Below are positions 857-62,349 of a stretch of DNA of 64,000 nucleotides, piece by piece; the stretch's first letter is position 1; every line of letters begins with the position of its first letter. The translations under genes and the position numbers were made by a program. The notes beneath the pieces were generated by a model. The model worked only from the letters and a program-made list of their open reading frames with translations. It was not told the DNA's origin and ran no database searches. The DNA is from Dictyostelium discoideum (lineage: Eukaryota), in NCBI GenBank assembly GCA_000004695.1, contig CM000155.2:3488001-3552000 (forward strand), read 5' to 3'.

Positions 857-1311
857 GATATATAAAAATAATTTCGACCACACCCTTTCAATATTATCAA
901 TTTTATTTATTTTTTATTTTTTATTTTTTATTTTTTTTTCCAAATATCACACCCACACACTTTAAAAAATTCTTTCTCTCATATTATATGATTTTTTTAT
1001 TTTTTTTTTATTTTATTTTTATTTGTTTTTATTTTAATTTTTTTTTTTTTGTTTTTTTATTTTTTTTATAATAATGTTATTATTTTTCTCATTTTTCAAT
1101 TAATATAGAGCCAAATAAAATTTTTAAAGATATTTTTTTTTTTTTTTTTTTTAAAAAAAAAGGGGAATTGTAAGGGGAAAAGGGGGGGGTTAAAAAAATA
1201 TTATTATTATAATAATTATTATTATTATTATTATTATTATAATAATTATAATAATTATTATACCCCAAATTTATAAATTTTAATTTCCCCTTTTTTTTTT
1301 AAAATTAATTT

Positions 1312-11138: not shown

Positions 11139-11170
<32 letters not shown>

Positions 11171-11769: not shown

Positions 11770-11814
<45 letters not shown>

Positions 11815-12222
11815 CTTATTTTTTGGGTTTTTTGGAAATGTTTTTTTTTAAAACCAAAAATAATTTCTTACTAAATGATGAATGCCAACAATCGTCACGC
11901 ATATTCATTTATTATTAAAAGAAAATCGAGTTTTGCAATGGTCGATAAAAAGAATTTTATTATAAAAGTTCACTAAAAATAATTTAAAATAAAAGAATAA
12001 AAATTAAAATAATAAAAAAAAAAAAAAAAATCACACACACACATCACACCACAACCACTAAGTTATTTTTAATTTTTTTAATTTTTTTTATTTTTTTTAT
12101 TTTTTTTTATTTTAATTTTTTTTAAAATTTTTTTTTTTTTTTTTTATTATAATGGAAATATATTTTTTGATATACACCCAAAAAAAAAAAAAAAAAAAAA
12201 AAACCCCAAAAAAAAAAAACCC

Positions 12223-12794: not shown

Positions 12795-13152
12795 ATGTTA
12801 ATTCATCCATTTATACAATCATTTACTGAAATAATTGATAATAGGATGAAGTTAGGGAATAATATGGAGGGAGTTATAGAATGTAAAAATTGTCAAACTG
12901 ATACACCCAAATGTAATAAAGTTTGTCTTACTTGTAATTCTGACATTGGTGAACGATGTTGGAGATGTAATTATTTGGGAAAAATAAACTCAAAATTTTG
13001 TTTTAGATGTAATGTTAAATTACATCCAACTTCAATTCCACCAAAGGATTCAATACAACCAATACCAATATTTACAAAACATCCAATAGCCTCTACACTT
13101 TTAATTAATAAATCAATAATTCCAACTCAATCAGAAAATAATAGTATTAATG

Positions 13153-13237
<85 letters not shown>

Positions 13238-13353
13238 CAACACAAACAATAATGATAGCAAAATTATTGATGCTACTATAACTAATACTAAAAACAATAA
13301 CACAACTAATAATAATAATATTAGTAATAATAATAGTAGTAATATTATTAGTA

Positions 13354-13427
<74 letters not shown>

Positions 13428-13637
13428 TTGAATTTCCTTAAAAAAAGTACAAGCTGTGATAATGGTAGTTTTGAAAGTATCAGTGATTCTATCTCACCAA
13501 TAAAGGATATAATTAACAATATAAACAATAGAACCAAAGATATTGAAAAATTAAATAGTGCGTTGCCGTTAAACAAAAAATCAAATTCTTCTACTTCTTG
13601 GTCAAATTTTAATACTTTTAAAAATAATAGTAAAACC

Positions 13638-13703
<66 letters not shown>

Positions 13704-14281
13704 TATAAACCAACAATAACAAGTAGTCAAACCCAACCCTCGCTTATGGAAAATAGTAAAGATATCGACAAAAAAGAAAAAATACCTTCAAATATTAATA
13801 ATAATAGAAGCACCACTATTATTTATAAATATCAAGAAGATAATAGTGAAGATTATACGGATGATGGTGATTTTGAAGAGTTTCAAATAAACTCTAATCT
13901 AACCTCAGAATCATCATCAATTGATTCTTTAATAATAAAGGATGGAGTAATAGCAACAACTGTGACATCATCAACAATAAATTGTATTAATGACAATAAC
14001 TTTGATCCTGATCAATTATCATCATCGACATCATCAATAAAGAAACCAAAATTATTCTATTCCATAACTAAAAAGAAATTAGTAAGTCAATCACCACCGC
14101 CACCACAACCACCATTTTTAGCTTCAGCTTCATCATCATCAACAACAACAATAACAACAACAGATTCTCTTGAAAAATCAATTAAAGATTCAACACCAAT
14201 AGCTACGACATTGGTTAATGATTATCAAAATCAAAATCAAAATTTAAATAATGAATCGGCAGCTTCATCATCATCATTATC

Positions 14282-14321
<40 letters not shown>

Positions 14322-15334
14322 TTATTACCAGATTCTCAAACCAATTTAAATAATTTAATATTTATTGAAAAGTTAAATAATGATTTATCTGGTAGTATTG
14401 AAACTTTGAATAATAGTTTAAATAATAGTTTAAATAGCTTAAATTCCAGTTTTAATTTTAGATTAAATTTAAATTCAATTACAAATAATGAAGATAAAAG
14501 ACTTTCAAACTCATCATTATTGGATGAAATAATTGATGCATTTCCATCTCCACCTTCAAAGAATCCTTACATTTCAGTTTTAAATACTAGTGGTGGTATA
14601 GGTAGTAATAGTAACAGTAGTAATAATAATAATAGTAACAGTAATAATATAACAAATAGTAATAGTTCAAGTTTCAGTAAAAAGAATAGTAATAATAATA
14701 ATAATTATCAACCAGTTATTTCACTACCAATTCCTATTGTTAATCATCAACAACAGCAACAACAACAACAATTACAAACAGCTGCAATTTTAGGTAATAA
14801 TAATATTAATTTTATTCAAAATCCATCATCGACATCGACAACGACAACGACTACGACTGCTTCTACTACAACTATTTTAATTAAATCTGATCATAGAACC
14901 AATTTAATAAAAGAGATTTTAACAACTGAATTAGATTATGTTAACGATTTAGAGACCATTATTAATGTTTTTTGTAAACCACTTAGAGATTTTATATCAA
15001 ATGAAGATAGTGCAAGTATTTTTTCAAATATTGAGCAAATTTGGCAAATTAATAAACAACTCTATGAGAATTTAATTTCAAATACTTTAACTATTGGTCA
15101 AGTTTTTTCAAATATGTCTGATTCATTAAAAGTTTATTCTGTATATTGTAATTATCATCAAAAATCTTTGGATAGTTTAAATCAATTATTAAAAACTCCT
15201 CAAAATGAATCTTTTTTTGATCAATTATTAAGTAAACCTGAATTAAGAGGAATGGGTCCTCATTCATTTTTAATTAAACCTGTTCAAAGAATTTGGTAAT
15301 TATCTTAAATATATATATATTTTTAAAAATTTTA

Positions 15335-15371
<37 letters not shown>

Positions 15372-16488
15372 GATATTATTATTATTATTATTAACACTTT
15401 GATATATTTATTTAAAATTTTTTACTATAGTAAATATCCATTATTATTAAAAGAATTATTAAAAGCTACAGCAGAGGATCATTTTGATTATCCACAATTA
15501 ATACTTGCTGTTGAAAAAATTGAAAAAATTGTTGGTACAATAAATAGTCAAAAGAAAGAAATGGAAACTTGGCAAAGAACAATGCAATTAATTCAAAATT
15601 TAAAAGGTGCTGATGTAAGTATAATTATAATTTTAAATTTTTTATTTAACTTTTTTTATTTATTAATCATCTTTTTTTTTTTTTTTCTTTTTTCTTTTTT
15701 CTTAGAATTTACAATTATTAGCAGCAAATAGGCATTTAATTTTAGAAGGATCATTACATTTAGTGATTGGATTCACAGAGAATGCAGAGAAAAAGAATTC
15801 AAGTTTAAAATTTAAAAAAGGTGTTTACTTTTTATTTAATGATTTATTTTTGTTTACAAAACAAAAAGGTACAACTTATAAACTATTATTTTATACTCAA
15901 TTGGATAATGTTTTAATTCATGCAAATGTTTCAAATTGTTTCCCTGCTGATAAGAGTGTATTCTCTTTAGTTGAAATTGGTGTTGGTGGTAGAAAATGGA
16001 CATTTTGTAATACAAATTCAAATAGTAGTAATATTAGTAATAGTGGTAATAGTAGTGGCATTATTAATAGTAGTAGTAGTAGTAGTGGTAGTTGTAGTAA
16101 TGGCGGTAATAGTAGTGGATATAATAATTTAAATAATACATGCGGTATATATAGCGGTAATAGTAATAATAATAACAATAATAATAATAACAATAATAAT
16201 ATATTTTCTACTATTCAAAAATTAATTGAAAAAACATGGGAGGATAAATTCATGGGACAAAGTAGCGTTTCACATAGATTAAGTATCCCATCGACAAGTT
16301 CTCCAAATAATGGTGCTTCTTTGAATGGTAATAGTAGTAGTAATAGCAGTAGTACTTCAATATCAACAGTTGGTTCTCCAAATGTTACTTCAGCTGCAAA
16401 ACAACAACAGCAACTACAACAGCAACAACAATCTTCAAAGAAAAGAAATAGACGTCTAGTAAAAAGTTTAGTTAATATTAAAACATAA
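12795..16488 (+). CDS. Rho/Rac guanine-nucleotide exchange factor with a Cys-rich N-terminus, long poly-N linkers, a DH domain and a PH domain. Three exons: 12795..15295, 15431..15614 and 15706..16488, about 1155 aa.
   Basis: The DH domain reads HRTNLIKEILTTELDYVNDLETIINVF...LIKPVQRI. Splicing the GTAATT donor at 15296 to the acceptor at 15430 recreates the canonical QRIC|KYPLLLKELLKAT (TG + T gives Cys). Exon 2 ends at the GTAAGT donor at 15615, and exon 3 (LQLLAANRHLILEGSLHLVIGFTENAEKKNSSLKFKKGVYFLFNDLFLFTK...) is a PH domain. The track ORFs 15399.. and 15763.. are exon fragments. The N-terminus carries CxxC pairs (CKNCQTDTPKCNKVCLTCNSD...WRCNYLGKINSKFCFRCN). Confidence 0.8.
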
Positions 16489-16657
16489 TTAAATTTTTCT
16501 TTTAAAAAAAAAAAAAAAAGTTATTTTGTGTTTTCATTTTAAATATGTATATATCATGGAGAAAAAAAAAAAAAAAAAAAAAAAAAACCAAACTAAATAT
16601 ATTATATAATAAAAAAAAAAAAAAAAAAAAACCAATTTAAAAATTAATTATTTTATT

Positions 16658-18154
16658 TTAAAATGTTATTGATTGAGGTAGTAAAGTTTCATTTAAAGAT
16701 TGATCAAAAGAATTACCAATTATAAGTTTTTCTATTGTTTTTGGTAATTGAAAATTTATTGGTTTATCAAAATCACCAATTAATTTTAAAACTTTTAATT
16801 TTTCAGGAATAAATCCTTTAGATATTGATTGATTTGATTTTATTACTAATATTTCAACACTTTCTGGTATAAAATAATTGGAATTAAATTGAAAACCATA
16901 ATATTTTCCAAATTTTAAATATTTAATTGAATTTGGGAAAACATAATTCTCAACGATTTTATTACAATTAATTGTTAATTTTTTAATACTTGTTGGTATT
17001 GTTATTGATTGAATTGTAATTGACTTATTAAAACGAATACCAAGTTTTAAATTTTCAATTGTATTTGGAAGATTAATATGTTGAATTGATCTGTGGATTT
17101 TACAATTTAAAATTAATTTATTTAAAGAGGATGGAAAAAAATTTAAATCTTGAAATTTATAAATATTTTCAAAATTCCAATCGTAATCTACAAGTTTAAG
17201 ATATGTTATTGAATTTGGTAAAACGTTTGGTTGAACTATTATTTTAGAAACAATTAGAATTAGAGTACTCAAGTTTGGTGGGAACATATCCCTTGTTAGA
17301 GAAGTTTGTTTTTTATTTGAATAATTTAAACTTAACCAAGTTAAATTCTCAAATGAATTAATTGGTAATATGAATTTTGGAATTAAATGACTAATATCTA
17401 GTTTTTTTAATGTCAAAGGTAATGAATTTAATTGAAAAACGATTTCATTTTCGTCATTAAAATATTTCTCTGAAGTTGTTAGAGTTAAACTTTCCAATTG
17501 ATTAGGTAAACAATCGCTTTTAAATATTAATAATAGTTTCATTAAATGAAGTGATAAATGCTTTATATGATTTGGTAAATCGTTTGCTTTCAATTCTGTA
17601 TTACCATTATACCAATATGGTCCCAAATCAAGTGATGTTAAACTAGTTGGAATTGATAACCATTTTGATAAATTATGATTTGGACATCTGAAAATTGATA
17701 ATGATTTTATATTATTTGGAATTATAACTTTTCTTTCAGGTGGCAAATCATCAGACTCGTTTTGTTCATATCTATCACCTCTTATAAAAGTTGCATTTAT
17801 AACAGTTTCAACTGAAGTTGGAAATAGTAATAATCTGGTTATCTTATTATTATATCTTGGATATGTAAATTTCTTTAATCCATTTGATAATTGTGATTCT
17901 ATTGGTTGTTCACACTTATATTTATCATATAAAATCGAAATTGAATGTAGACTTTTTGGAAAATCTTCACCTGAAATAAATTCACCTGTACCATCATAAA
18001 TAACTGTTTTATAATATTCTATATATGGGAAATCTCTAATATCCTCAACTCTATCTATCGCAACAGTATCGTAATTTTTAAAAAATCTAATAAACCTAAA
18101 TATTATTCTATTAATAAAAATATTCCTCCAAACTTTAAAAAATAATTTATCCAT
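16658..18154 (-). CDS. FNIP-repeat protein (Dictyostelium FNIP repeat family, LRR-like), 498 aa, single exon.
   Basis: ATG at 18154. The N-terminus MDKLFFKVWRNIFINRIIFRF is typical of the family. Repeated units such as LPNSITYLKL, FPSSLNKLIL, LPNTIENLKLG, IPTSIKKLTI, FPNSIKYLKFGKYYGFQFNSN, IPESVEILVI, IPEKLKVLKLIGDFDKPINFQLPKTIEKLIIGNSFDQSL match the FNIP consensus. Confidence 0.8.
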   Translation of the reverse strand: MDKLFFKVWRNIFINRIIFRFIRFFKNYDTVAIDRVEDIRDFPYIEYYKTVIYDGTGEFISGEDFPKSLHSISILYDKYKCEQPIESQLSNGLKKFTYPRYNNKITRLLLFPTSVETVINATFIRGDRYEQNESDDLPPERKVIIPNNIKSLSIFRCPNHNLSKWLSIPTSLTSLDLGPYWYNGNTELKANDLPNHIKHLSLHLMKLLLIFKSDCLPNQLESLTLTTSEKYFNDENEIVFQLNSLPLTLKKLDISHLIPKFILPINSFENLTWLSLNYSNKKQTSLTRDMFPPNLSTLILIVSKIIVQPNVLPNSITYLKLVDYDWNFENIYKFQDLNFFPSSLNKLILNCKIHRSIQHINLPNTIENLKLGIRFNKSITIQSITIPTSIKKLTINCNKIVENYVFPNSIKYLKFGKYYGFQFNSNYFIPESVEILVIKSNQSISKGFIPEKLKVLKLIGDFDKPINFQLPKTIEKLIIGNSFDQSLNETLLPQSITF

Positions 18155-18581
18155 AATAATTTAAAATTAAATTTAAATAATGAAAAAAAAAAAAAATTTG
18201 TTTTTATTATTATGATGGCTAGTTAAATGTTTTTGCTTGGATATTGGTGACTTGATTAAAACAAATTAAAAAAAAAAAATTAAAAAAAATTGAGAAAACA
18301 AGAAAAAAAACAATAAAATTTTACATTTTTTTTTTTTATTAATAAAAAATGATAGCAAAACAGTAGGATTTGGAATGTTCTCCCTAAACAATAAAAAGAT
18401 AATAGATTTAAAAAAGTATTGAAAAATAAAAATTAATTAAAATTGTTTTATTTTTTATGATTTTTTTTATTTATTTATTTTTTTTTTTTTTTTTTTTTTT
18501 TTTTGGTTATTTTTTATTTTTAAAAAAATAAGGATCTATATTACAATTGTATTGATTTTGTTTAAATTATTATTTTATTAT

Positions 18582-21110
18582 TTAATATAATTTTAAAATG
18601 AACTTCTTTTGATTTTGACGCCATTTTGGTAATTTATAAAATTCAGATCTATTTTGACCAAATAATCTCTTAAAATCTTGGTTGTTAAGGTAAGACTCTA
18701 ATTTAAATACATCATAAGCTCCAGATTTTTTATTTGCAACAATGGTTTCATATGGGATGTAGGTGAAATTTGGATCGTCAATATTCATTTCATCATTATC
18801 ATCACCAGTTTTTAAATCACTATGTGAATTTAAATCTGAAAAATGATTATCATCACCATCACTATCAATGGTTACAGAGGTTATTGAATTTGAAGAACTT
18901 GTTCTTTGTGAAACTGATAATGGTGATGATTCATATGTTCCTTCACTACCATTTGGATGTTGATTAACAATTGCTGGTGATGATGATAATTGTGATGTTT
19001 GTGATTGTTTTTGTGAATTTGATTTTGTTGTTGTTGGTGGTGTTGTTGTTGGTGGTGTTGTTGTTGGTGGTGGTGTTGTTGTTGGTGGTGGTGTTGTTGT
19101 TGTTGGTGGTGGTGGTGTTGGTGTTGCTGTTGTTGTTGTTGTTGTTGGTGTTGGTGTTGGTGTTGTTGTTGTTGTTGTAGTTGAAGATGGTTGTTGTGAT
19201 AATGTTTGTTCATTATTTTCATCTAATGATACTTTACCTTTTCTTTTTAAAGTAAAATGACCAGTAATCTTTGAAATTGTTGAAACTGATTTTGATCTCG
19301 TTCTTTGTTCTTCAAATGTTGGTGGTGGAGTTATTGAACCATCATCGTTATTATTTCCAGTTTGTAAAGAAGAGCCACCATCATCAGGACCTAATAAATT
19401 ATCAAATTTCTTTTTACGAGTTAATCTTGGTCTACCATTTATAACATTATCAGCTTCATCACAACTTGTATTTGAAGGTGATTCAATTGGTGGTGTTGAT
19501 GAAGTAGAATTTGGTTGTTGTAATGAAGCTGATAATTCACTTGGGTGAATAGTTTTTCTTTTTTGAAATAATGTATTAAAAATTGAAGGTGATGAAGGTG
19601 GAGAAGAAGAAACATTACCATTTCTTGGTGAACTATTATTTGAATTATTATTTGAACCATTACCATTTGCTGCTGATGCTGTAGTTGGAATATTTGTTGC
19701 TAAACTTTGTTGTTGATTACCATTATTATTATTATTATTATTTTGAGCAATCATTGATTTAGATAAAGTTTTTCTACTTGAAGTTGAAATACCACCACCT
19801 ATATTAGTACTACCACCAATACTAGTATTTAACATTATTTTAACAGATTCATCAACATCAGAATTTATAGTTTTTCTATTCTCTCTTAATTGATTAATTA
19901 ATTTATTGATTTCACTTTTTAAATTTGATTTTTCTAATTCATTTTTACAATAAATAGTATAAACCTCTAATTGATCTTGTTGATTAAAATATTGAATTAT
20001 TATAATTGGTTTTTCAGGTTCACTATCATTATGATTTATAGAATTTTGAAGTTGTAATTGTTCCTGTTGTTGTTGTTCTTTATCATGATGATCATCATCT
20101 AAAACTATTGAATTTGAAAGATCAATTATACCATTAAATCTAACTTTTTTATTATTTGAAGATCTTGGTGTACCCATAATTATAATATCATTAAATAGAT
20201 AAATGATTGAATCTTGTTTCTTTTTTGGATTTACAAATAGAAATTCTTTAATAAAGAAACGACTTGGTTGAAATAAATTATTTGGTATTGATTTACCAAC
20301 TAAATTTGAAAGGATTTCAGTAAACTTTTGAAAATTTTCAACTTTTCTTTTACGTTCATTTAAAAAGGTAGCAATACTTTTAATTTTTTCGACAGCTTCT
20401 TTCAATGGTTGATAATCTGGATGATCAGTCCATGTATTTTTAACCAATTCTGTCAATAATAGGAAATATCTTGGTACACGTTGAATTGGTAAAATTAAGA
20501 ATGAATCAATCTCTGATCCACCAATCTCTGGTCTATTATTAACTTCATTCATCATTGAATTGAATTTATCGGAATTCTTTTTAAGATCTTTAATTGCTGC
20601 GATTGAATTATCATAATTTTCAACATAACTACTATAAACCTTTAAAAATGATGAAATCGATAAAAACATATCACTTAATTTCGTATAAATCTTCCAATTG
20701 TTACCACATCTTTTCTCTAATTCCTCTAAAAATGTTTTACCAAAATTATATATAATTATTATATCACTAAATATCATTCTACTTTGTTCTTTACTTATAA
20801 TCTCTTTTTGTAATAATGGTTCCATATAAAATTTTATACATATATTTAAATTTTTAACATAATCTGTTTCTGTTTTTAATATTTCATCTGTAATTTTTTT
20901 TCTATGTATTATATTTCTTTCTAAAATTTAAAATAAATAATTATTATTTTTTATAAAAAAATTGAATAGAAAAAAAAAAAAAAAAAAAACTTACTTAATT
21001 TTAAATAAACTTGTCTAACTTTATAACCTTTCCATAATGCTTGAAAATATAAAAATCCTTTTTCACATTTTTTATCTATTATTTTAAATTGTAAAAAAAA
21101 AAAAATTAAT

Positions 21111-21144
<34 letters not shown>

Positions 21145-21664
21145 AATTAAATTTATATTTACAATCAACTTTATTACCAGATATTATTTCAATTTTCTTT
21201 TTAATTACTAATGTACCACCAGGTTTTTGTTTTTGATTAAAATTAAATTTAACATTACTTGAATAATCTTTAATTTGTGATAATAATAATTTTAAATTTA
21301 CTAATTCATCTTCAGCTGGCATTCTAATTTGAACATTTGATGATTTTGGAAATTCAATTGTAAAATCTTTCTTTTCACATGCAAATCTTCCTAAACATGA
21401 TAAACATTCAACAACTTTAACAATATTTTCACCTTTAAATAAATCATCTGTAAAAAATAATTTTTGTGGTGGAAATCCAAAATCTTTTAAACCTAATAAA
21501 AAGAATTCAATATTACCTCTAAATTCGAATCCCTAAATTTTAATTTATTTTTTTAATATATTTAAAAAATAAAATTAAAATTAATAATAATTCAAATTTT
21601 ATTAAAAAAAAAATAAAAAAAATATTATTGAAAAAAAATCACACTTGTCTTATTCCAAAAAAAA

Positions 21665-21705
<41 letters not shown>

Positions 21706-22001
21706 CCAAATTTTGATTTATAAACGATTGATGGGACAGTATTTTCTTGAATTACATTAATTAAATCCCATAAAATTACACCATTTTTTAAAGCATCAAA
21801 AAGATTTGTTTGAATTTTAACACCTAAAACTTTTTCTAACCATTCTTTTACTAAAATTTCTGTTTTTAAATAACTTTTAACTTTTTCATCAGATACAAAT
21901 CCGATATTATTTATTAATTTAAAATTTGAAACACCTCTTAAAAATGTTGGTCTTTTTAATCCTTCACCATTAGATATAGCGTTATCTTCGCCTCTATGCA
22001 T
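18582..22001 (-). CDS. Rho/Rac GEF with CH (calponin-homology) domain, IQ motif, DH domain and PH-like region plus a Pro/Thr-rich linker. Four exons on the minus strand: 22001..~21704, 21532..21163, 21075..20995 and 20920..18582. About 1029 aa.
   Basis: Exon 1 (EILVKEWLEKVLGVKIQTNLFDALKNGVILWDLINVIQENTVPSIVYKSKFGG) and exon 2 (FEFRGNIEFFLLGLKDFGFPPQKLFFTDDLFKGENIVKVVECLSCLGRF) form a CH domain. Exon 3 (KKCEKGFLYFQALWKGYKVRQVYLKL) is an IQ motif. Exon 4 begins with the DH domain (RNIIHRKKITDEILKTETDYVKNLNICIKFYMEPLLQK...LILPIQRVPRYFLLLTELVKNTWTDHPDY). Introns 2 and 3 are phase-consistent, with donors GTAAAT at 21162 and GTAAGT at 20994. Intron 1 (GTAAAA donor in the G5 run at 21703, acceptor TTTAG at 21533) is off by 1 nt. 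That is either a homopolymer length error or an alternative site. Confidence 0.72.
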
Positions 22002-28171: not shown

Positions 28172-29267
28172 TTTTTTAACAACAGGGGAGATTTTTATTT
28201 TTGGTTTTTCCAACAAGAGAAAATATTAATTGTCTATATACTTTTTTTATATCTTCATTTGTACTCCACTAAATATGAACCACTTTTGATTAAAGTTTGT
28301 TTTTTAAAAACTAGTTTTCCAAACAAGTATCCCTTACTATTTGCAATCATTTGTAGAACCATTTCCAATTAATTAGTTGAGTTTCTAAAACTACTATTAT
28401 CGAACATAATCAAAGTAACTAATTAATTTCACATTTTAAAAAAAAAAAAAGAAAAAAAATTAAAAAAATAAAGATTTATTTTTTTAGAATAGTAAAAAAA
28501 AAAAAAAATAAAAAATAAAAAATTATTTTTTGAACAATATTTATATAATATAATTCTTTCTGAAAATCATTATTAAAAAAAAAAAAAAAAATAATTAATA
28601 AAAATAATATATATAAAGATAATCTATATTTATTTATTATTAAAATTATTTAATCATAGATTATTATGATAATTAGATAACAAATCTTCAAATATATAAA
28701 CACATAATATAACCACCGTGGTGAGTTAAATATTATCATAAATAATTTACCACAGTGGGTTAAATTTGGAAACCAAAGGCTAAAAAAAAAAAAAAAAAAA
28801 AAAAAAAATAATATAATTAAAAAAAAAAAAAAATACCTTAATAAATAAGTGAAAAAAATAAAAAAAAATCAAAATTAATAATTTAAACAGTTCCCAAAAT
28901 ATCTCCTAAAAAATGGAAAAAAAAAAAAAAGGAAAAAAAAAAATAAAAAAAAAAAAAAAGTGAAAAAAATAAATGGAAAAACTGCCTTTATCTATTTTTA
29001 TTTATAAAAAATTAAATAATAAATAAATTTTATCAAAATTTTGTATTTTGTGATGTTAGTGTGTGTCATAATTGGAATATTGAAAAAAAAAAAATAAAAA
29101 ATAAAAAAAAAAAAAAAAAGAATTAATTAATGATTAATCATATGACTAACATTATATTTTCAATTTTTTTTTTTTTTTTTTTTTTTTTCCAACCCCCCAA
29201 AAGGGACCCATTTTTTTTTTTTTTTTTAAATAAAATTTGGGGCCCCCCACAGTGGAATAATTTTAAA

Positions 29268-32310: not shown

Positions 32311-35300
32311 TTAAACTTCAATTGAATTAAATACAACATTAGTTGGAGTTGGAGTTGAATTAAATAAAGGACTATTTGAATTATGAGATTTTAATAAGAT
32401 TGATGTATTATTTGAGTTTGTGCTATTTACTAAATTTGAATTTACAGAGTTAACCAAGTTTGATGAAGAGAGTGATCTTGTTTTGGCAGATGATGATGAT
32501 TGTTTTTTACCCTTAATACCAATACTTTGAATGATCTCTTGAAGTGGAATTTCATGGAAATCCTTATGATTATTACTTGATGATTTTTTAAAGTCATCAA
32601 TAAATGAGGATTTACTTGAGTCACTTAATCTTTCTTGATTATTATTATTAATATTATTATTACTATTATTTAATATATTATTAATTTGATTATTTTGAAT
32701 ATTATTTGGATTATTTATACCAATATTATTAATATTTGAATTATTTATTTTATCAGTTGTGTTAATACCACCATAATTTCTTTGTGAATTTAATTTTTCC
32801 ATTTGAATTCTCTTTTTCTTTTTCTTTAACATATTATTATTTGCTTTTGCTTGATGTTGGTTGTAATCAACTCTAAAGCTACTAACATGGTCAGCCAAAT
32901 TTTTATAACCATCAGCTTGCATTAACTTAATTCTTTCACGGAGATAACGTTTCTTTTCTCTATTTCTTTGTCTAAAGAAACCGACTAGAATACAAACTAC
33001 AAAACCCATAACAATTAAAGCAGGAGCAATGATAAGGGCAGCCAATTCTGGAACGTAAAAAGTCATCAAAGAGAGAGCTAAAATAAAGATGATGGTAGCA
33101 ACGAAATTCATTAGACCACTTACCCATTTGACACGAGTTGGAGAGAATAGATAGAAACTACCAATGATCCAACAAATTGGAATAAAGAAACCGAAAACAA
33201 ACATTGTCCAAGCTGGACCAAAACCCATTAAACTACAATAGACACAAGATTCTTCGTTGTTATTGTTTGAACGTTCACTCTCTTCAGAGTGCATAAAATT
33301 GACCATATCTTGCATTCTTGTGAGAATAACATGTTTTTCACGAGAACCTTCAATTTTAACACGATCAAGATCACGATCAATCTTTACAATGTGATCTTTC
33401 TCTTTCTTTAAGGATCTACCAATTTGTTGAGTGGCACCAATATTTTCCAATAATAGTACACGATCATTTACAACCAAAAGATTTGGAACAGTGGTACCAT
33501 CTTGTAGTTTTACTTCACCAGCGACTTTAACAGCATTTGGTAGTACTTCTTTAACCTCTTGAGCCAAGAAACCTTTTTCCTTTACAGTTGTACTCTCTTG
33601 AGTGGTACCATTATTATTTGGATCATCATAACCCATCATTTTCTTACGATCATAATCATAGATTTTCAAACGATTGATTTTATCCCAATGATCAGTATTA
33701 TCAAGACGAATATTTGATTTAATTCTTTGATCTGATGGTTTAAATAATTCACCAGTTACTAAAATATTACCATTTACAGCGAGTGCTTGAGTTGGTGTAG
33801 TTGTATTAATACCAACTTTATTATTGGTATAAATAACTTCTTCCATAAATGGATTGGTATTCCATTTTGCAAATTTATTTTTTCTACTAATTGAACTATT
33901 AGTACTACTACTACCACCACTATTTGTCATAGATTGTTGAGATGGTTGTGGAGTTGATGGTATTGTTGTAGTGGTTGTAGTGGTTGTAGTTATTGGTTGT
34001 TGTTGTTGTTGTTGATGATGATGATGATTATTATTAATTTCTAAAATTGTATGGTGAGATTGTGGAGTTGTTGTATTTTGTAATAATCCATTAGCAAGGT
34101 TTAAACTATTAATCATTTGATTAGTTGATACACCGGGTATATTTTGATTAAGAAATAAACTTTGTTGAATATTTGTATTTGTTAAAGGATTATTTAAAAA
34201 GTTGAATGGATTTTGAATATCTGTTGAAGTGGTATTTGGTGTTGAAGTGGTATTTGCTATTGAAGCAGCGATTGCAGCAGCTGCTTGAGCTGCTTTTAAA
34301 TTTGATAATTGTTGTTGTTGGTGTAGTTGTTGTTGTTGAATTAAATTTGCTAAATCAAGTGTTGTTTGTGGATCATAAACCATTAAATCATCAGAATTAG
34401 TATTATTATTGTTGTTATTATTGTTGATTGTTGAGTTGGTATTAATATTATTTAAGATATTATTGGAATCAATATCAACCATCATAGTTTGACCTAATAT
34501 TAATGGATCTTGCAATAAATTTGAAAAAGTTAATGGATCAATGGTTGTAAGATCACATGGACCATTAAAAATTGAAGTATTATTTCCATCAAGTGTTGTT
34601 GTTATTGAAGGAGCAGTTAAAGTTGGTGATGGTGTTTTTGGTAATGGTGTTGTAGTTGGTATAGTTGAAGTAGTAGTTTCATTAGTTGTTGTTGTTGTTG
34701 TAGTTGGTGTTGGTGTTGGTGTAGTAGTAGTTGTTGTAGTAGTTGTTGTAGTAGTTGGAGATTGATCATCATCAGAATTATCAGAATTTGAAGTATTTAG
34801 AAATGTTTTCATATGTTTATTTGCACTTCCATTTCCATAACCACCATTTGAAGAACTACCACTGCTTCCATTATTACCCATACCACCACCCATACCTCCA
34901 CCCATACCTCCACTACCACTACCACCACCACCTTTACCACCATTTGGAGATGAGTTTGGATCTTTTTTTAAAGATTTATCATGATTTAAGAAACGACCAG
35001 GATTTTGACCACGAACAATCATTGGTGGTGAAATTTTAGATTGAATTGGATAAAATTGTGGGGTGGTGAAATTTTGATTTTCAAAGTTTTTATCAATGAC
35101 AGCATTTAAAGTGATAACGACTCTAAAGAATTGTTGATTTGGATTTGGTTGATCGGGATGAACTCTGGCATTGTTTGAAGTTGCTGAACCAAATTGTAAC
35201 TTATTCCAACAACCTCTACCCTTTACAACTGGTGAAGGCTCAACGGTTAAACGATCTTTTTTACCGGTGGCACCACCCAATTGATGAATTGGTACACGAT

Positions 35301-35398
35301 CATTTTGATCATTACTTGATTGGATATTATTAGCATCGGTAAACTTTAAAACATACAAAGTAAAGAATAAACCATTAACCTCGGATAAATCACCATTA

Positions 35399-38972: not shown

Positions 38973-40379
38973 TGACATATGTGTGGATTTATTATCTTAT
39001 GATCTTTATTAAGCCCAAAATTTTTTTTTTAACTGAAAGCATTATATATGTGTATATTTATATATAATATGTATGTAAATATTTAAAATTATTTACAAGT
39101 AAATAAAGCAAAATTAAAAACACCAAAATAAATTATTTATTATGTGTATAAAATAAAAAAATATTGTTTATTATTACAATTTTGTCTTAGAAAGCTAGGT
39201 TGTGAGACCTTTTTTGGGATTTTGTTTGTGTGCAAGTGGGGAAGGTGGTTATAATGGTGTTTTTTTATTTTATTTTAATTTTTTTGTATTTGGGGTGGTA
39301 TTATTTGAATTTTGTTTTATTTATTTTTGTAGTTTAATTAAATTTTATATATCAAAAATATTTTTATTGTTTTTATGGTTTTTTTTATATTTTTTATATT
39401 TATTATTATTATTTTTATTATTATTATTATTATTATTATTGTTTTTTTTTTTTTTTTAATTTTGGAAATTAATTAAATGATATTAAAATTAAATAAAAAA
39501 ATAATATATATATAATTTTTTATTTTTTTTTTATTTTTTTATTTTATTTTATTTTTTTATTCCTAAATAAACAAAAAGGCTATCGAATTAATCTCCAATC
39601 TATCCATTAATTTTGGAATACATAAATATTTTAAATAATTTAAAAAATAATAAAAAAACAAGGGAAATTAATCTAGATTAACAATAATTAAAAATGACAA
39701 TTGTTGATGTAATGATGACCTGATGATTTGAGTTCTATATTTTTATTTCCATATCAATCAAAGAAAATTAAATTTAATGTAAATTGAATGTTACCTTTTA
39801 TTTAAATTATTCTTTTTTTTATTTTTTTTTATTTTTTTTTAATTTTTTATTTTATTTTTTTCTTTTTCTTTTAATATTATAAAACACCAGGTGTTTGTTG
39901 GTTTTTTTAGTATTGCAAGTGAAATGATTTTATGATTTTTACTATTTTTATTTTTTTTTTTGATTATTTTTGAATTTATTTGTATTTTAAATAATAATAA
40001 AAACTAAAAAAAAAAAAAAAATAAAAAAAATAAATACCAAAAAGAAAAAACAAAAAAACTATGATTGTTTATTTTTATCTTCTTTTAATTTTTGGTGAAA
40101 AATGAGAAAAAAAAAAAAAAAAAAAAAAATTTAAATTTTACCCAAAAAATGGGGAAAAAAAAAAAAAAAAAAAAAAGAATTTTAAAATCTATTGAGAAAA
40201 TGAATACAGAATATGTTTGTTGGATCATTAAACTTTAATAAAATTTTTTTTTTTTTCTTTGTTTTAAATCTTTAAAAAAAAAAAAAAAATGTTTGGAATA
40301 TAATCCATCTTTTACACTTACCTTTTTTTATTTTATTATTTAGTATTTTTTTTGATTAATTGCAAGGTTGGAAAATTTG

Positions 40380-40412
<33 letters not shown>

Positions 40413-40491
40413 AAGTGTCAAAAAAAAAATTATTATAAAAATAAAAATAAAAATTTATTAAAAGAGTCTGGGTAATAATTTAATCGGGGGG

Positions 40492-40529
<38 letters not shown>

Positions 40530-40673
40530 GGGGGGTTTTTTGGAAAAAAAATTAAAAAACCCCAAAAAAAAAAAAAAAATTAAAAAAACCCAAAAAAAAA
40601 TTTTAAAATTAAAAATTAAAATTAAAAATGGAATTTAAAATAAAAAAAAAACCCCTAAAGTAATTATTTTTTT

Positions 40674-40887: not shown

Positions 40888-43800
40888 TTATAAAGAATCT
40901 TTAATTTTTTTAATTGCGTCAGCAATTTTTTTATTTCTATCTTTAATTTCTTTTGAAGTTGTGAAACCTTTAGATTCTTCTTTATATTTATTTAAAATAT
41001 TTAATAGTTGAGGAATATTTGTAATTAGATTGTAATGTTTTGCTTTTATTTTTGGATCAACGAAATCCTCAGGATTATCAGAGAGTAAAAAGTTTGTAAG
41101 TTGACGTAATTCTACAAAGTAACCAACCATATTTCTACTGGTGGTAGTTGTTCTTTCCTTTTCATTTGCTTTCTCTTTGACGTAAGTTTCAATATATTTC
41201 AAATCAGCATCAAAAGATTTCACACCTTGAAGATTTAATTTCTTTAATTGATCATCATATATCAAAGAGAATAAAGACTCTGAAATATTTTTAAAAGCTT
41301 TGGTAATGAATTCCTCTTTTAAATTTTGAGAGAGTGGAGAAATGAAAGGAAGTGTTACCTCTAAGAAAGTACAAACATCAATTATATAATCTCTTGGACG
41401 ATCATCTATTGCATTTTGAGGGAACCATTCAATATTTGCAGCTGATGACATTAGATCTTCAATCTTTTGTTCACAAAGTTTAATAATTAATTTTTCACCA
41501 TGACTCTTTGTAGTGTAAAGTAAGTTTTGAGAATTTAAAATAACTTTATTAGTTTCATTGACAATCGATTGATTCTTTTGATAATCTTCACCTAAAATTA
41601 AACTATTTAAATAATCTTTAAAGAATGAACAACCTGATATTAAATGTTGTAAATTAATAACTAATTGAATTACTTGTGGTACAGCTTGACTTTGAGTTAA
41701 ATAACTATATAAAACTTCATTGATTTTTTTAATCAATGTATCTGTTGATCTAATTATAAAATTTTCATTCTCTGTTAATTGATCTGAAAATTCATAAAAT
41801 TCTGATATAAATTTTTTAATTAATGTATAAAATTGTGGTACCATTTTTGAAAATAAAAATGATTTTGGTAATCTTTTTAAAAAAATAAAAAAAAAAATTA
41901 ATTATTAGTATTAATATATTAAAAGTTTTTTTTTTAAATTGTTTTTTTTTTTTTTTTTTTACCTTTTTGAAATTTTATCATCTTCATTTTCATCTTCATC
42001 AAAATAATCATCATCATCATCATTATTATTATTATTATTTAAATTTTTATCACCAAATTGAAATTGATTATTATTTAAAGAATTTTGTAATTGTCTTAAT
42101 TGTTGTCTTTCTAAAATATCTAATTTATTTGCTAAAATGAGTGATTTATATTCTTCTAAAGACTCAATGATTAAAGAACAATGTGAATCACGTTCTAAAA
42201 TGATTGTAAATCTTTCAACAGCTTCTTTAATTGAGAATTGACAATATTTCTCTTTCATTGTATCCAAGAAATAATAGAGTGGTTGTACATGATAGGAATA
42301 GAATGACATTGTATTGGTAAAGATTAAAACAAACTTTTTAAATGCAATTAAAGGTTGAGTATCAACACAATGAGTGAATAATTCTTGAAGTACAGAGGTA
42401 ACCTTAACCAAAGCGGAATTCCAACTATCGTTAATGGTTGTTTTTGATAGAAAAGGCTCAGTACTATCGATAACTTTACTTTCTACCATGAAATAACCAA
42501 GAATTTGTTGAAGGAATAATTCCCAAACTTGACCACTCTCTTTTGGTTGAATTACCAATTGGAATTGTAAAAGTCTATTCAATGTATAATAAGCTTGAAA
42601 TTCCTCAAGTTGACCTATACTTGCATGAATGAAAAGACATTGATAAAGTGGATGAAATTGAATATCCGATTCATCAAATGGTGAGAATTGATTGATATCC
42701 TCCTTTAGATCCTTTTCATTGATTTGTTTATTGAAACCAAATGAAGATGGTGTTTTTCCAGAATTTGGTGAATAAATTGGTGCAGTGACAGGTGAATTTA
42801 ATGTTGGATAAAGAGCCAATGAACCAATACTACTAGAGTTTATAATTGGTGGTATATCCAATATTTTATCCCAAATTTGTTCATTCTCACCAAAGGTGGT
42901 CTTGATTTTCAATGGATTGATTTCACGTTCTTTCAAAAGTTTCTTTGAAGTTTGAATCATACCCAATTTACCAATGACAGCGGATTTCTCTTTAATTTCA
43001 ACCATCCATTGATTGAATTCATCTTTTACCAATTTTTTAATCTTTTCCTTCAATACTGGTATATTATAATCCATATTTCTTGCAAATTGAAAATCCGATA
43101 ATTTCTTTAAATAAACGTTATGTAATTGATCCATGTTTTTAATGGCTTGATAGTATTTCTTTTGTTGTACATATTCATCGACTTTCATACCTAAAAGTAT
43201 GGCATATTGACAATTGTTTAAAACTTCTTTTGTTCTCTTTATATTATCTTTGATTTGTTTATAAGCAAATAATTCCTCTGCTTTTGTAACATATTTTCTA
43301 CCAATCTCTTGAAGTTCATAATTTAAATTGATTACATCTTGTTTTAAATCTAAATTCTCACCTTTTAAACCAAGGAATGCAGTTACTGAATTAATGAAAC
43401 CTTCATGATTTTCACCACAAATCTTTTCAATATCTAAATCTTTTTGAGCGATATATGCATTCAATATCTTTATGACTTCTTTTTCTTTATTATTTTCAAA
43501 TACTGATTTAATTGCTGGTCCTAAATGATCGGTATCTGATACTGCAATTAAAAAACTCTCTGAACTAAAGATTTCACTCTCTGTTATCAATGGTTTCGCT
43601 TGATCATCTTGTGAGGAATGAGGTAATGATGATGATCTATCTTGAGAACTTAAACTATAGATACCTTGTTTTTCACCAACTTCTTTCTCCAAATGTCTAG
43701 TTTGCATTGGTTGTCCACTACTTGATAATCCATTTGAATCTATTGATGCTGATAAACCGCCACCACCACCATTACTATCATTACCATAGGAATCAAATTC

Positions 43801-44055
43801 TTGAGCACCACTATGTGTACTTGAATCACTTGTAATTGATCCTGATCTACCTGCTTTTCCAATCTTTTTCAACTCTTTTTTCTCTTTTTTTTTCTCTTTT
43901 TTAACATTTTCTGCTTCTTTTTTCTCTAATCTCTTTTTCTCTTTTTTCTCTCTCTTTTCTTCTTTTTGTTCTTTATCTTTATCTCTAACCATTGTTTTTA
44001 AAATAACACTACCACCAGCAGTGTTAATTTCTTCTTTTTGTTTTTTGTTACTCAT
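40888..44055 (-). CDS. exoc6: Exocyst complex component Sec15 (EXOC6) with a K/E-rich N-terminal extension. Two exons: 44055..41963 and 41872..40888. Phase-2 intron 41962..41873. About 1025 aa.
   Basis: Sec15 N-terminal signature TDHLGPAIKSVFENNKEKEVIKILNAYIAQKDLDIEKICGENHEGFINSVTAFLGLK, then helical bundle domains through ...VDTQPLIAFKKFVLIFTNTMSFYSYHVQPLYYFLDTMKEKYCQFSIKEAVERFTIILERDSHCSL. Exon 2 continues LPKSFLFSKMVPQFYTLIKK...LPFISPLSQNLKEEFITKAFKNISESLFSLIYDD. The donor is AG|GTAAAAA at 41962; the acceptor at 41873 keeps the codon AGA. The symbol follows the metazoan/dictyBase naming convention and is tentative. Confidence 0.78.
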
Positions 44056-46942: not shown

Positions 46943-47015
46943 GCTCGATTAGCTCAGTCGGCAGAGCGTGGTGCTAATAACGCCACGGTCGCAGGTTCGA
47001 TCCCTGCATCGAGCA
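46943..47015 (+). tRNA. tRNA-Ile (anticodon AAT), 73 nt, no intron, CCA not encoded.
   Basis: Cloverleaf by eye: acceptor GCTCGAT/ATCGAGC; D-arm GCTC-AGTCGGCA-GAGC; anticodon stem TGGTG/CGCCA (one G-U pair) with loop CTAATAA (U33, anticodon AAU); variable loop CGGTC; T-arm GCAGG-TTCGATC-CCTGC with the conserved GTTCGATCC B box. The discriminator is A, followed directly by a TTTTT run. Confidence 0.9.
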
Positions 47016-48698: not shown

Positions 48699-49715
48699 AT
48701 GAATAAATTAATTTTACAAATCATAACATTTGCATTATTGATTAGTTGCTGTTTATCAATTCAACAAAACAGACAATCTTATAATAGAAATAATATTTAT
48801 AATAATATAAAAGAAATAATTGTCGATGATTATTCAGTTCCAAAATTATTAAATTCAACAATTTACTTTAATTCAACTATTCCATTTAATAGCACTTTAT
48901 CATCAGTTAATTCAACATTATCATTTATCAACAGTACACTTGGTCATTTGAATAATACAATTTCATTTAATGGAACAGTATTCTTTAATGGAAGTACACC
49001 ATTGAATGTAACTTCATTAAATTCAACTATGCTTAACATCCAAGAAACTCTCCACTCAATTCGTATTGTTTTAGAATCATTAAACACTACTCTTGTCCAT
49101 ATGAATAGAAGCTTATCTTTGTTCCAATTCAATGAAACCAGTTTAAATTCATCTATTCCTTATTATACATTCCAACCATATTATGATTCAAAATGTAAAT
49201 TCCCAGGTGGAGGTTTAGGTGTTGCCATTAGTCAAAATCAACAAAACATTACCATTTTCAACCAAACCAACATTTGTGCCAACTTTAATTTAACAAGCTC
49301 TGATAACTTTACCGTTCAATACTTTAATAATAACTGTACCTTTGCAAATGAATCAATTCATAACGAAACCTTCTCCGTTAATGATTGTAATTACAGTCCA
49401 TTCTTAAAATCATACTATAGTATTGATTTATCAACTGTTAAATTACCACAATCAACACTTGTTGTAAACTATTACAATAAAAGTTCTTGTAATGAAATTA
49501 ATCAAGAAGGTTTCAACTATATGAGTAATCACACAGTAATTGCTCATACACCAAAAAGAAATCAATCAGGTACAACTTTATTATTCTGTAATGAACAAAA
49601 TATTCCAACAAATACAACTTGTATTTCTACTCATTTTGGAAAACAAAAATGTACAACTGAAACAATTATTGAAAATTGTGATGTTACTAGAAACTTTAGA
49701 ATTACTTGTTTATAA
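48699..49715 (+). CDS. Secreted or cell-surface protein, 338 aa, with signal peptide, about 30 N-glycosylation sequons and a Cys-rich C-terminal half. Single exon.
   Basis: ATG at 48699. The signal peptide MNKLILQIITFALLISCCLS has a predicted cleavage before IQQN. Repeated NxT/S sequons appear (NSTIYFNSTIPFNSTLSSVNSTLSFINSTLGHLNNTISFNGT...). The C-terminal part has 16 Cys (CKFPGGG...CANFN...CTFANE...CNYSP...CNEINQ...CNEQNIPTNTTCISTHFGKQKCTTETIIENCDVTRNFRITCL). It ends at a TAA stop. Confidence 0.7.
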   Translation: MNKLILQIITFALLISCCLSIQQNRQSYNRNNIYNNIKEIIVDDYSVPKLLNSTIYFNSTIPFNSTLSSVNSTLSFINSTLGHLNNTISFNGTVFFNGSTPLNVTSLNSTMLNIQETLHSIRIVLESLNTTLVHMNRSLSLFQFNETSLNSSIPYYTFQPYYDSKCKFPGGGLGVAISQNQQNITIFNQTNICANFNLTSSDNFTVQYFNNNCTFANESIHNETFSVNDCNYSPFLKSYYSIDLSTVKLPQSTLVVNYYNKSSCNEINQEGFNYMSNHTVIAHTPKRNQSGTTLLFCNEQNIPTNTTCISTHFGKQKCTTETIIENCDVTRNFRITCL

Positions 49716-52900: not shown

Positions 52901-53752
52901 CCAATACATCATGTGATTGTAATTGTTTTGATAATTGTCTATGTTGTGATAATTCTTGATCTTGATAATCACCATTTAATAATTCTAAAATAAAACAACT
53001 TGAAAGTTTTAATTTTAATCCAAATAATAATGGTAAATTAAATTCATAAATTATTTCGTTATCATTATCATTATCATTATCGTTATCGTTATCATCATCA
53101 TCATTTGGAATAATTAATAATTGACATCTTTTAATAAATGCTGATGATGATTCATTATCAAATTCAATCCAATCTTTATGACAACCAATTACATTTAATT
53201 TAAATTTCTCTTGATATTTATAAATTGTTGTTATATTTTGTTGAAAAGATTGAGTGAATGGATAATAATGATGATTCATTAATGTAGTTTTACCAACAAC
53301 CACTGAAAATGTATTATTACCACCTAATAATGAATCTGTTAATTTCTTTATAAGTTTACTTTGTTCTGAACCTGGTGGTACCATCATAACTGGTGGTGTT
53401 AATTCAACACTTATCAATGAATCATAATATCTTTCACTAATTCTTGTTAAATATTCATTCATTTCTTTTTCTTTATCAATGAATTCTCCAAATGAATATG
53501 GATTTAAAGATAAATATTCTTTACATTTTTCAATACATTTTTCAATAAATTCTTTTGGGTCATCTAAATAATAAATAATTTTTTTTTTCAATATTAATAT
53601 TTTATTATTTATTTATATTATTATTTTTTAAAAAAAATTAATTACCATTAAAAACAACTTTAAGATCTAAATTTGAATTTTTTAAATTATCTGTTAAATT
53701 CTTTGAAATATTATTATTATTATTATTTATAGATTTAAATTGTTTTAATTTA

Positions 53753-53787
<35 letters not shown>

Positions 53788-54872
53788 ATTATTATTATTA
53801 TTAAAATTATTTATATTTTTAATATAATCAAATAATTGTTGTGGTATAGTTGTTAAGAATTGTTTACCAATAGTTAAAAAGTTTGATAATACAATACGAT
53901 CATTTTGACCAATTTTAGACCAATCAATTGATTTACTACCATTAATTGGATTAATGATTGTATGTAATTCGATTTCTCTCTTCCAAGAGTTTGTCCATAA
54001 ACCGACGCCAACATTAGGTTCAAGATGCCAAAATTTAATTGATTTAACTTCACCTTGAAATTCTTTACCTGTCTTTAAATCTTTTAAAAGATAAATTGAA
54101 CCACCATTATTATTATCAATTGATTTTTCATTTTCATCATTAATATCTAAAGTTGTTGGAGGTATAGTTATATCAATTAATCTACAAGATTCAACAATTT
54201 CACCAGTTTCTTTATTTTTCCAAACTGGTTCAGGTATGAAATCTAACATTAAATAACGTGGCCACCAAATTGGAGTACCTAAAGCATCAAATTCTTTAAT
54301 GGAAGGGAATCTTTCATGATAAGATTTGAATGAATGTTTATAGAGTTCAATTTGTTGATTCCAATAGATAGGACCAAATTTAGAGATATCAGACATAACA
54401 TTTCTACCAGCTTCTTCTAAACCATTTAAAAATTGTTGTCTTAATGATGATTTAATTAATTGAGGATTTAAAATTTCTAATGAACCCTGTCTACCAACAT
54501 TTGTTGCAATTTGTAAACTATTTAATGAAATTGGATGTGAAGTTTGCCAATTTAATGGATCATCTAAACAAAGTTGTTGATTATCATTATCACTATCCTT
54601 GTTGTTTTGATGATTTGGTTTTGCACATTTTGAACTTGAAAGAATTAAACGAACTGAACCATAAATTGAATCCTTTGGGAATCTATTCAATTCAACTGCT
54701 ATACCATAATCATTAATTTGTCTTTCAATCATTCTTTTAATTGATCTATGTGACATCCAAAATAATGGTGATGCAATGATTGCACGTTGAATTACAACAT
54801 TTTGAGATTTTGAAATATGTAATATAAATTCACATGCATTATTAATTGATTTACTACATAATTTTATACCAA

Positions 54873-54911
<39 letters not shown>

Positions 54912-62274: not shown

Positions 62275-62349
<75 letters not shown>

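Follow-up and report, generated by a model that had tools for sequence, protein, structure and literature searches.

Segment 12795..22001 of the window (the whole 64-kb stretch of Dictyostelium discoideum DNA analyzed here, from contig CM000155.2) holds three genes: G1 on the plus strand, encoding a predicted Rac guanine nucleotide exchange factor (RacGEF) with a double zinc ribbon; G2 on the minus strand, an FNIP-repeat gene; and G3, also on the minus strand, encoding a second exchange factor (GEF) with an N-terminal calponin-homology (CH) domain and a C-terminal villin headpiece (VHP). The entire stretch has 10-30% GC, contains poly-Asn and poly-Gln tracts, and has short, AT-rich introns and spacers. 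An earlier note, made from the letters of this DNA, had proposed three genes on these strands and at these coordinates, and our splice models and Pfam searches agree with it. We consider it very probable that these are three ordinary, independent D. discoideum genes whose neighborhood does not form a functional unit and that G3 is of the GxcD type; a broken splice donor at the end of its first exon is likely an artifact.

The window was compared with several other loci. L001 (GCA_054883475.1) is 99.1% identical to the window across 21.5 kb, while L002 and L003, both labelled D. discoideum, have ~92-94% nucleotide identity to it, i.e. are up to ~6-8% different; the synonymous divergence (dS) of these two from the window is ~0.03-0.09 in G1-G3. 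The divergence of L002 and L003, far greater than that of L001, suggests deep lineages or cryptic species under the one name D. discoideum. L004 (GCA_054859385.1) is a D. discoideum paralog locus, L005 and L006 are from D. purpureum, and L007 is from Acytostelium. Domains were called by Pfam profile searches of the spliced models and folds by AlphaFold2 (AF2) models and Foldseek; ratios of nonsynonymous to synonymous substitution rates (dN/dS) were computed against L002 and L003, with small substitution counts.

Exons and domains of the CH-domain exchange factor

G3 has four exons and encodes ~1027 residues, with these features:

22001..21708, minus strand: exon 1, with the start codon and the first half of a type-3 CH domain; the Trp codon at 21770..21768 is Cys in relatives
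21702..21707, minus strand: defective donor of intron 1, GGGGGT in the window, GTGCGT in L001, GTACGT in L002
21532..21163, minus strand: exon 2, with the second half of the CH domain and a helical spacer; it starts at the acceptor used by relatives
21075..20995, minus strand: exon 3, containing the IQ motif FQALWKGYKVRQVY at 21046..21005
20920..18582, minus strand: exon 4, with DH-PH, a disordered linker that includes a Thr/Pro tract, the villin headpiece, and the stop codon
21851..21383, minus strand: CH domain, split by intron 1 (Pfam CH, E 1e-9)
20918..19818, minus strand: DH-PH (Pfam RhoGEF, E 8e-53; AF2 and Foldseek)
19817..18798, minus strand: disordered linker, dN/dS 0.72-0.86
19187..19026, minus strand: Thr/Pro tract of low complexity, residues 823-876 (~18990..19190 in the earlier note)
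18692..18585, minus strand: villin headpiece (Pfam VHP, E 3e-12)

In relatives, exon 1 ends straight after AAATTT (window position 21708) and exon 2 begins at 21532; the related protein P0001 reads KSKF before and GFEFRGNIEFF after this first junction. The second donor (GAT T/GTAAAT, with the slash at the exon end, 21163) is supported by P0001 (...NKVDYKKCEKG) and by the annotated length of 1027 residues, and the four-exon splicing applied to L001 yields 1027 residues, exactly the length annotated there. Canonical splicing of intron 1 in the window through the obvious acceptor AG at 21534/21533 was rejected, as it shifts the reading frame and runs into a stop; to stay in frame, the sequence as written requires a cryptic acceptor at 21516. 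Three alternative models were superseded because P0001, L001, and L002 show an ancestral donor that is mutated in the window.

The CH domain and IQ motif had been assigned by the earlier note to three small upstream exons that appear as unrelated open reading frames (ORFs), and all three exons can be placed: ORF 21639..22001 is exon 1 run through into the intron, and ORF 20951..21322 is exons 2 and 3 run through intron 2. Homology supports the joining of these exons to the DH-PH exon, since relatives carry CH, IQ, RhoGEF, and VHP in one polypeptide. Such one-polypeptide relatives come from two other D. discoideum-complex assemblies, D. citrinum, D. dimigraforme, D. purpureum, and Polysphondylium. 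Homologous full-length models of G3 are found in at least 8 species or strains, a count based on homology, with the intron-1 donor of the window itself non-canonical. No independent assembly has the window's read-through exon-1 ORF on record.

The N-terminus of G3 is a single CH domain whose nearest solved structures are the CH domains of calponin 1/2 and of IQGAP-like Rng2, and it is thus classed as type 3. The IQ motif, 29 residues ahead of the DH start, fits the full consensus [FILV]Qxxx[RK]Gxxx[RK]xx[FILVWY]. This consensus occurs at the same place in all 15 of 15 family members, while only 51 of 20000 composition shuffles (0.26%) produce one; Pfam IQ is the top match for the peptide, at a sub-threshold 17.4 bits (cutoff 20.3). 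The RhoGEF match (E 8e-53) covers the full profile (2-180), with conserved region CR1 (E..TE..Y) read as EILKTETDYV and CR3 (P.QR..RY.LLL) as LPIQRVPRYFLLL, in columns that are invariant in the family alignment.

Because the PH match was sub-threshold in Pfam for both GEFs, this domain was tested by structure. In the AF2 model for residues 246-612 of G3 (mean predicted local distance difference test score, pLDDT, 79.7), the DH helices form a bundle, and seven strands and a helix come after it. Foldseek aligns the entire model (~350-370 columns) to the DH/PH units of Ephexin4, p115-RhoGEF, and intersectin (E 1e-17 to 3e-19, template-modeling score 0.71-0.74). At the C-terminus, where the earlier note had omitted it, lies a villin headpiece that matches the full VHP profile (1-36, E 3e-12), reaching the last residue, and can be aligned over its full length with the headpiece of Arabidopsis villin-4 in PDB (E 3e-10). 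This headpiece is present in all dictyostelid members and lacking in the non-dictyostelid homologs P0010, P0011, and P0013. The CH-IQ-DH-PH exchange factor described in the earlier note is thus borne out, with CH and RhoGEF identified by Pfam, IQ by consensus, and DH-PH by structure; the scan of spliced models that the note had proposed recovered its named domains throughout the locus (Pfam, AF2/Foldseek), with IQ and PH below the Pfam threshold.

The dN/dS values of G3 are 0.23-0.47 for CH, 0.10-0.14 for DH-PH, 0.10 for VHP, and 0.72-0.86 for the linker. We read these folded domains, like those of G1 below, as being under purifying selection, and the G3 linker as evolving nearly neutrally.

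Within this linker, the earlier note had singled out a mucin-like Thr/Pro segment as unusual in a cytoplasmic GEF. The tract exists: it comprises 54 residues, nearly all Thr and Pro, and its local composition resembles the proline-threonine-serine (PTS) repeats of mucins. Its description as mucin-like and unusual did not hold. Tandem Repeats Finder resolves 19025..19183 as period 3 with 53 copies or period 18 with 8.5 copies, a repeat class to which the AAT and CAA arrays of G1 also belong. In P0001 and P0036 the tract has another sequence and another length, indicating variation between strains, and P0040, the ortholog in D. purpureum, lacks one (at most 11 Thr/Pro per 30 residues). In the window, comparable Thr/Pro tracts occur in 3 of 17 long coding stretches, and tracts of any two residues in 12 of 17. 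A mucin domain combines secretory routing with a conserved PTS repeat, and G3 shows no such combination: its N-terminus (MHRGEDNAISNGEGLKRPTF...), read from the sequence, has neither a hydrophobic signal sequence nor a transmembrane segment, and the flanking domains are all cytoplasmic cytoskeletal modules. A functional, O-glycosylated mucin-like domain through which this GEF would act, unusually, outside the cell or in a lumen is therefore scarcely credible, given also the period-3 DNA repeat, the variable length and sequence, and the near-neutral dN/dS of the linker. The tract is best described as a slippage-prone trinucleotide-repeat spacer, predicted to be disordered and typical of this genome, and not as a mucin domain. 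A further Thr/Pro tract lies in the large ORF 32311..35358 (minus strand), described below.

Altered donor and Cys codon in exon 1

Between 12600 and 22250 (9.65 kb), the coding sequences of the window and L001 are identical except for substitutions at 21768, 21735, 21706, and 21704. The first changes to Trp a CH-domain Cys that is invariant in 13 of 13 relatives, and the last two convert the intron-1 donor from GTGCGT to GGGGGT. Behind the donor, the poly(A) tract is 9 nt longer in the window than in L001, and the patch adjoins a 32-nt homopolymer. Four of seven substitutions lie inside 65 bp (P = 3.5e-5 for uniform placement), and at all four sites comparison with L001, L002, and L003 shows the base in the window to be the derived one.

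Over the full 21.5-kb overlap with L001 there are 98 substitutions, grouped in a few patches (22320-22480, 21704-21768, and 11100-12190). When polarized with L002 and L003 by BLAST-based projection, 54 are derived in the window, 17 are derived in L001, and 27 are ambiguous. Most of the window-derived patches contain stuttered G/C blocks such as TTGGGTTCCCCGGGGGGGTTTTTTT and CCAAATTTGGGGGTTTTTTT, at positions that are A or T in the three other assemblies. Runs of at least 5 G or C number 14 in the 64 kb; L001 covers eight of them, of which seven, including the run at the donor, are in window-only patches. These stuttered patches look like low-quality base calls in the source assembly. Counting also candidate look-alikes at 1182..1189, 29177..29248, and 40363..40570, 12 of the 14 runs lie in or beside such patches.

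Because the window-only changes are clustered, and because nearby intergenic patches carry the same stuttered G/C signature, we regard the GG donor and the Cys-to-Trp change as likely base-calling or assembly artifacts of the source sequence. If so, the real G3 would be intact and encode ~1027 residues. The alternative, that both changes are real and mark a strain-specific null or hypomorphic allele of G3, has several points in its favor. The window as written has no canonical donor at the ancestral position, and the only in-frame GT-AG solution deletes residues found in every relative. Dictyostelium has ~45 RhoGEFs (PMC3971484, PMC5499878), so losing one is probably tolerable, and the failure of homology searches to return an AX4 protein for G3 would fit annotation as a pseudogene. 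This last point is uninformative, since G1 proteins that must exist were not returned by protein searches either. The coding sequence of exons 2-4 does not differ from that of L001 and shows no sign of decay, four changes in 65 bp beside a 32-nt homopolymer have the low probability given above for uniform placement, and window-only intergenic patches carry the same stuttered G/C signature. We therefore consider a real lesion unlikely. Were it real, use of a GT 4 nt downstream would lead to a stop after 5 codons, and use of a cryptic acceptor 16 nt into exon 2 would yield a CH domain minus four conserved residues (FEFR). In that case one of the strain's two F-actin-tethered (CH/VHP) RacGEFs would be naturally inactivated or hypomorphic; if that strain is a widely used laboratory reference, its "wild type" phenotypes would be those of cells without this GEF, and a comparison with intact-allele strains would provide a ready-made test of headpiece-anchored RacGEF function.

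Neighboring genes and their arrangement

G1 and G2 have the following features:

12795..15295, plus strand: G1 exon 1, with the start codon, double zinc ribbon, a long Asn/Ser/Thr/Gln-rich linker, and the start of DH; donor TG/GTAATT
12882..13013, plus strand: G1 double zinc ribbon, residues 30-73 (Pfam DZR, E 8e-7)
from ~14907, plus strand: G1 DH domain, residues 705-872 (Pfam RhoGEF, E 4e-48)
15431..15614, plus strand: G1 exon 2, with the DH end, including the QRICKYPLLLKELLK motif that spans the exon 1/2 junction
15706..16488, plus strand: G1 exon 3, with PH (15706..~16290), tail, the basic RRLVKSLV motif, and the stop codon
18154..16658, minus strand: G2, a single exon of 498 residues with FNIP repeats

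G1 has three exons, all with GT-AG introns, and encodes 1155 residues, the same product length as in the 99%-identical L001 annotation. Splicing of exons 1 and 2 restores QRICKYPLLLKELLK, which matches the invariant DH motif KP.QR..KYPLL and thereby supports the junction. The cysteine-rich part of the plus-strand DH-PH GEF reported in the earlier note proves to be a double zinc ribbon (Pfam DZR, 29.5 bits, cutoff 27.3), with Cys30/33/44/47 and Cys55/58/69/72 forming, as read from the sequence, two C-x2-C-x10-C-x2-C units. The PH domain falls below the Pfam threshold. The AF2 model of exon 3 alone shows seven strands and a helix in PH topology, with pLDDT >85 in the strands and a disordered Asn/Ser insert of ~60 residues ahead of the C-terminal helix. 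Foldseek matches this model best to PH domains from Ephexin4, PDZ-RhoGEF, FARP2, and AKAP-Lbc (E down to 2.5e-6). G1 thus has the DH domain followed by PH that marks the Dbl family (Pfam RhoGEF and the exon-3 fold), and its zinc ribbon, DH, and PH have dN/dS of 0-0.24.

The Acytostelium subglobosum protein SAMD00019534_084710 (P0048; DZR and RhoGEF) is an ortholog-level match to G1, with 61% identity over DH-PH. It also carries the double zinc ribbon (60% identity over residues 24-93) and shares the C-terminal RRLVKSLV motif. P0048 differs in lacking the huge poly-Asn/Ser/Thr linker of G1 (462 residues, partial, vs. 1155) and in having different neighbor genes. The RRLVKSLV motif stands behind PH, after a K/R-rich stretch, at 16440..16488 (plus strand) in G1 and at ~13500..13692 in L007. 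As a basic sequence retained in both proteins, this motif may serve in targeting or binding. With its double zinc ribbon, DH-PH, and conserved basic C-terminal motif, G1 belongs to a different, older RacGEF subfamily than G3. As a separate RacGEF, it would probably use its zinc ribbons, predicted to bind metal, for protein or ligand interaction.

The product of G2 is identical to the D. discoideum AX4 protein DDB_G0293926 (XP_628880.1; Q54B36, "FNIP repeat-containing protein"). It has nine FNIP repeat stretches (Pfam PF05725, E 3.8e-29, 101 bits, cutoff 21) and is one member of a large, fast-evolving FNIP-repeat family. Its dN/dS is 0.53-0.57 relative to the divergent lineages L002 and L003, with 57 nonsynonymous differences from L002, and its protein changes much faster than the folded domains of both flanking GEF genes. 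These values point to relaxed constraint on G2, unlike that on the GEF domains.

The earlier note had presented the three genes as a cluster of two GEFs bracketing the FNIP gene and had suggested a synteny comparison. The DH-PH units of G1 and G3 are 33% identical, no higher than either is to generic amoebozoan GEFs, and at this level of identity a tandem-duplicate origin of the pair was rejected. The order cofilin - X - DHHC - G3 - FNIP - G1 is kept in L001, L002, and L003, all within the D. discoideum complex. These three are collinear over the whole 20+ kb, including the unrelated cofilin and DHHC genes, so the conserved order is ordinary synteny. Beyond this locus we tested both D. purpureum CH-GEF paralogs (L005, L006), the D. 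discoideum paralog at L004, which belongs to clade B of the tree described below, and the Acytostelium G1 ortholog (L007), and found no FNIP gene, second GEF, or other shared neighbor within +/-10 kb of these loci (tblastn, tblastx). In a simulation that placed 45 RhoGEF genes at random among ~12,500, at least one pair fell within two gene positions in 27% of the trials. The other genes of the window have no common function: a Myb factor, a protein kinase, an NDT80-type factor, Sec15, RsfS, a GHMP kinase, and DHHC.

These results bear on a reading in which GEF-FNIP-GEF is a functional, co-regulated module, for example one where the FNIP protein acts as an adaptor for both exchange factors. Retention of the order in three D. 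discoideum-complex assemblies, despite up to ~6-8% nucleotide difference, and short intergenic spacers of 169 bp and 427 bp would suit such a module. Yet short spacers are normal in this gene-dense genome, the collinearity extends to cofilin and DHHC as in any syntenic block, and neither an FNIP gene nor a second GEF accompanies the D. purpureum, paralog, or Acytostelium loci. In addition, the two GEFs belong to different subfamilies, constraint on the FNIP gene is relaxed unlike that on the GEF domains, and proximity of this kind has a chance expectation of 0.27. We judge a module highly improbable; the adjacency of the three genes is probably incidental, a product of chance rather than a conserved unit. 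The cluster as a meaningful entity is therefore not supported, given 33% identity, lack of distant conservation, and the chance expectation, and what stands of the order itself is its retention in the D. discoideum complex, not at the ortholog loci of D. purpureum and Acytostelium.

Elsewhere in the window we noted the following:

32311..35358, minus strand: large ORF with NDT80/PhoG DNA-binding and Peptidase_S74 (endosialidase chaperone) domains, an architecture of myelin-regulatory-factor type
40888..44055, minus strand: Sec15 exocyst gene in two ORFs (N- and C-terminal domains), presumably split by an intron
46943..47015, plus strand: tRNA-Ile (AAT), the sole tRNA gene in the window
48699..49715, plus strand: counting-factor-associated ORF (CfaA/B/C family)
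53638..62826, minus strand: ORF of 3062 residues with no Pfam match even at E up to 10

Family, proposed mechanism, and known systems

Proteins with CH, RhoGEF, and VHP occur in D. citrinum, D. dimigraforme, D. purpureum (two genes), Polysphondylium violaceum, and other dictyostelid data sets, and more distant amoebozoan homologs have CH-IQ-DH-PH without the headpiece. A neighbor-joining tree separates clade A, which holds the G3 locus and D. purpureum DICPUDRAFT_96538, from clade B, which holds a second D. discoideum gene together with D. citrinum, D. dimigraforme, and D. purpureum DICPUDRAFT_4855. The two D. discoideum paralogs, G3 and P0007, are ~44-50% identical. The model of P0007 (ACTFIR_005419; L004 10001..13505) has a CH domain ~38 residues short relative to D. 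citrinum P0002 and an apparent retained-intron insertion (SKFLYFIFYSSGSSSSSGGE); it is probably mis-annotated.

Both GEF architectures are old and already catalogued, and we see no new biology in them. In dictyostelids ~44 RhoGEF ortholog groups have remained stable, each keeping its own set of domains, and Fort and Blangy regard amoebozoan RhoGEF expansions as independent events (PMC5499878). According to the inventory of Friedberg and Rivero, as cited in PMC3971484, GxcD is a RacGEF with calponin-homology and villin-headpiece domains; it joins the cytoskeletal fraction in the first phase of cyclic AMP-induced actin polymerization (PMC3971484). G3 has the same domain set (CH, RacGEF DH-PH, C-terminal villin headpiece), and the name could belong to the paralog of either clade. 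Among other candidates, GxcC was rejected as a relative of G3 on its ARM-CC-DH-PH architecture, gxcII and gxcJJ are at other loci, and P0037 (39 residues, in the P0001 cluster) is an unrelated sequence.

G3 belongs to the dictyostelid CH-IQ-DH-PH-linker-VHP family of Dbl-type exchange factors for Rac, which has the architecture known from GxcD. To our knowledge, Rac-type GTPases are the only Rho-family class in Dictyostelium, and the DH-PH unit of G3 would catalyze GDP release on them. The C-terminal headpiece would tether the protein to cortical F-actin, the type-3 CH domain and IQ motif may provide membrane or regulatory contacts and bind calmodulin or a light chain, and the disordered Ser/Thr/Pro/Asn linker of ~370 residues could serve as a flexible leash. 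An enzyme built in this way would activate Rac where actin already polymerizes, an arrangement suited to local positive feedback from actin to Rac, for which a headpiece-tethered GEF is an attractive and already recognized candidate.

Several points weigh against parts of this interpretation. Exact-sequence look-ups of the models and homology searches returned no AX4 entry for G1 or G3, so G3 may be either GxcD itself or its paralog. The artifact call was made by comparison with other assemblies rather than with reads from the source strain, which leaves room for a real cluster of mutations. The synteny test covered +/-10 kb in two distant species. Finally, it is domain homology that predicts GEF activity and Rac specificity, as well as the binding of F-actin to the headpiece and of calmodulin to the IQ motif.

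With RacGEF domain architectures in Dictyostelium already known and the FNIP gene already annotated, the value of the analysis lies mainly in annotation: a checked four-exon CH-IQ-DH-PH-VHP model for a gene whose 5' exons the ORF track fragments, the addition of the villin headpiece to its description, and a flag on patch 21704..21768, where a broken splice donor and a changed invariant CH residue are probably an assembly error.

Comparison with better-known proteins helps to place the parts of G3. Seven other Dictyostelium RacGEFs carry a CH domain (PMC1914345). GxcDD has a CH domain, two IQ motifs, DH, three PH domains, and ArfGAP, and its type-3 CH domain associates with membranes, not actin (PMC1914345). 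GxcDD resembles G3 in the order of an N-terminal type-3 CH domain, IQ, and DH-PH, and its membrane binding gives the best indication at present of what the CH domain does in G3. G3 differs from it in having one IQ motif, one PH domain, and no ArfGAP, and in ending with a villin headpiece after a long disordered linker. The metazoan proteins Vav and alpha-PIX/ARHGEF6 likewise have a single type-3 CH domain upstream of DH-PH, and the DH-PH of G3 matches the structures of Vav, PIX, Asef, collybistin, and intersectin by sequence and those of Ephexin4, p115-RhoGEF, and Vav, among others, by fold. Unlike Vav and PIX, G3 has no SH2, SH3, or C1 domain, and its IQ motif and villin headpiece are not found in the metazoan proteins. 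The last 36-46 residues of G3 align end to end with the headpieces of villin-4, villin-1, dematin, and supervillin and keep the LPxWK/RQ and basic KK motifs; here, however, a GEF takes the place of gelsolin repeats in front of the headpiece, and its C-terminal cap is LKLY rather than GLF.

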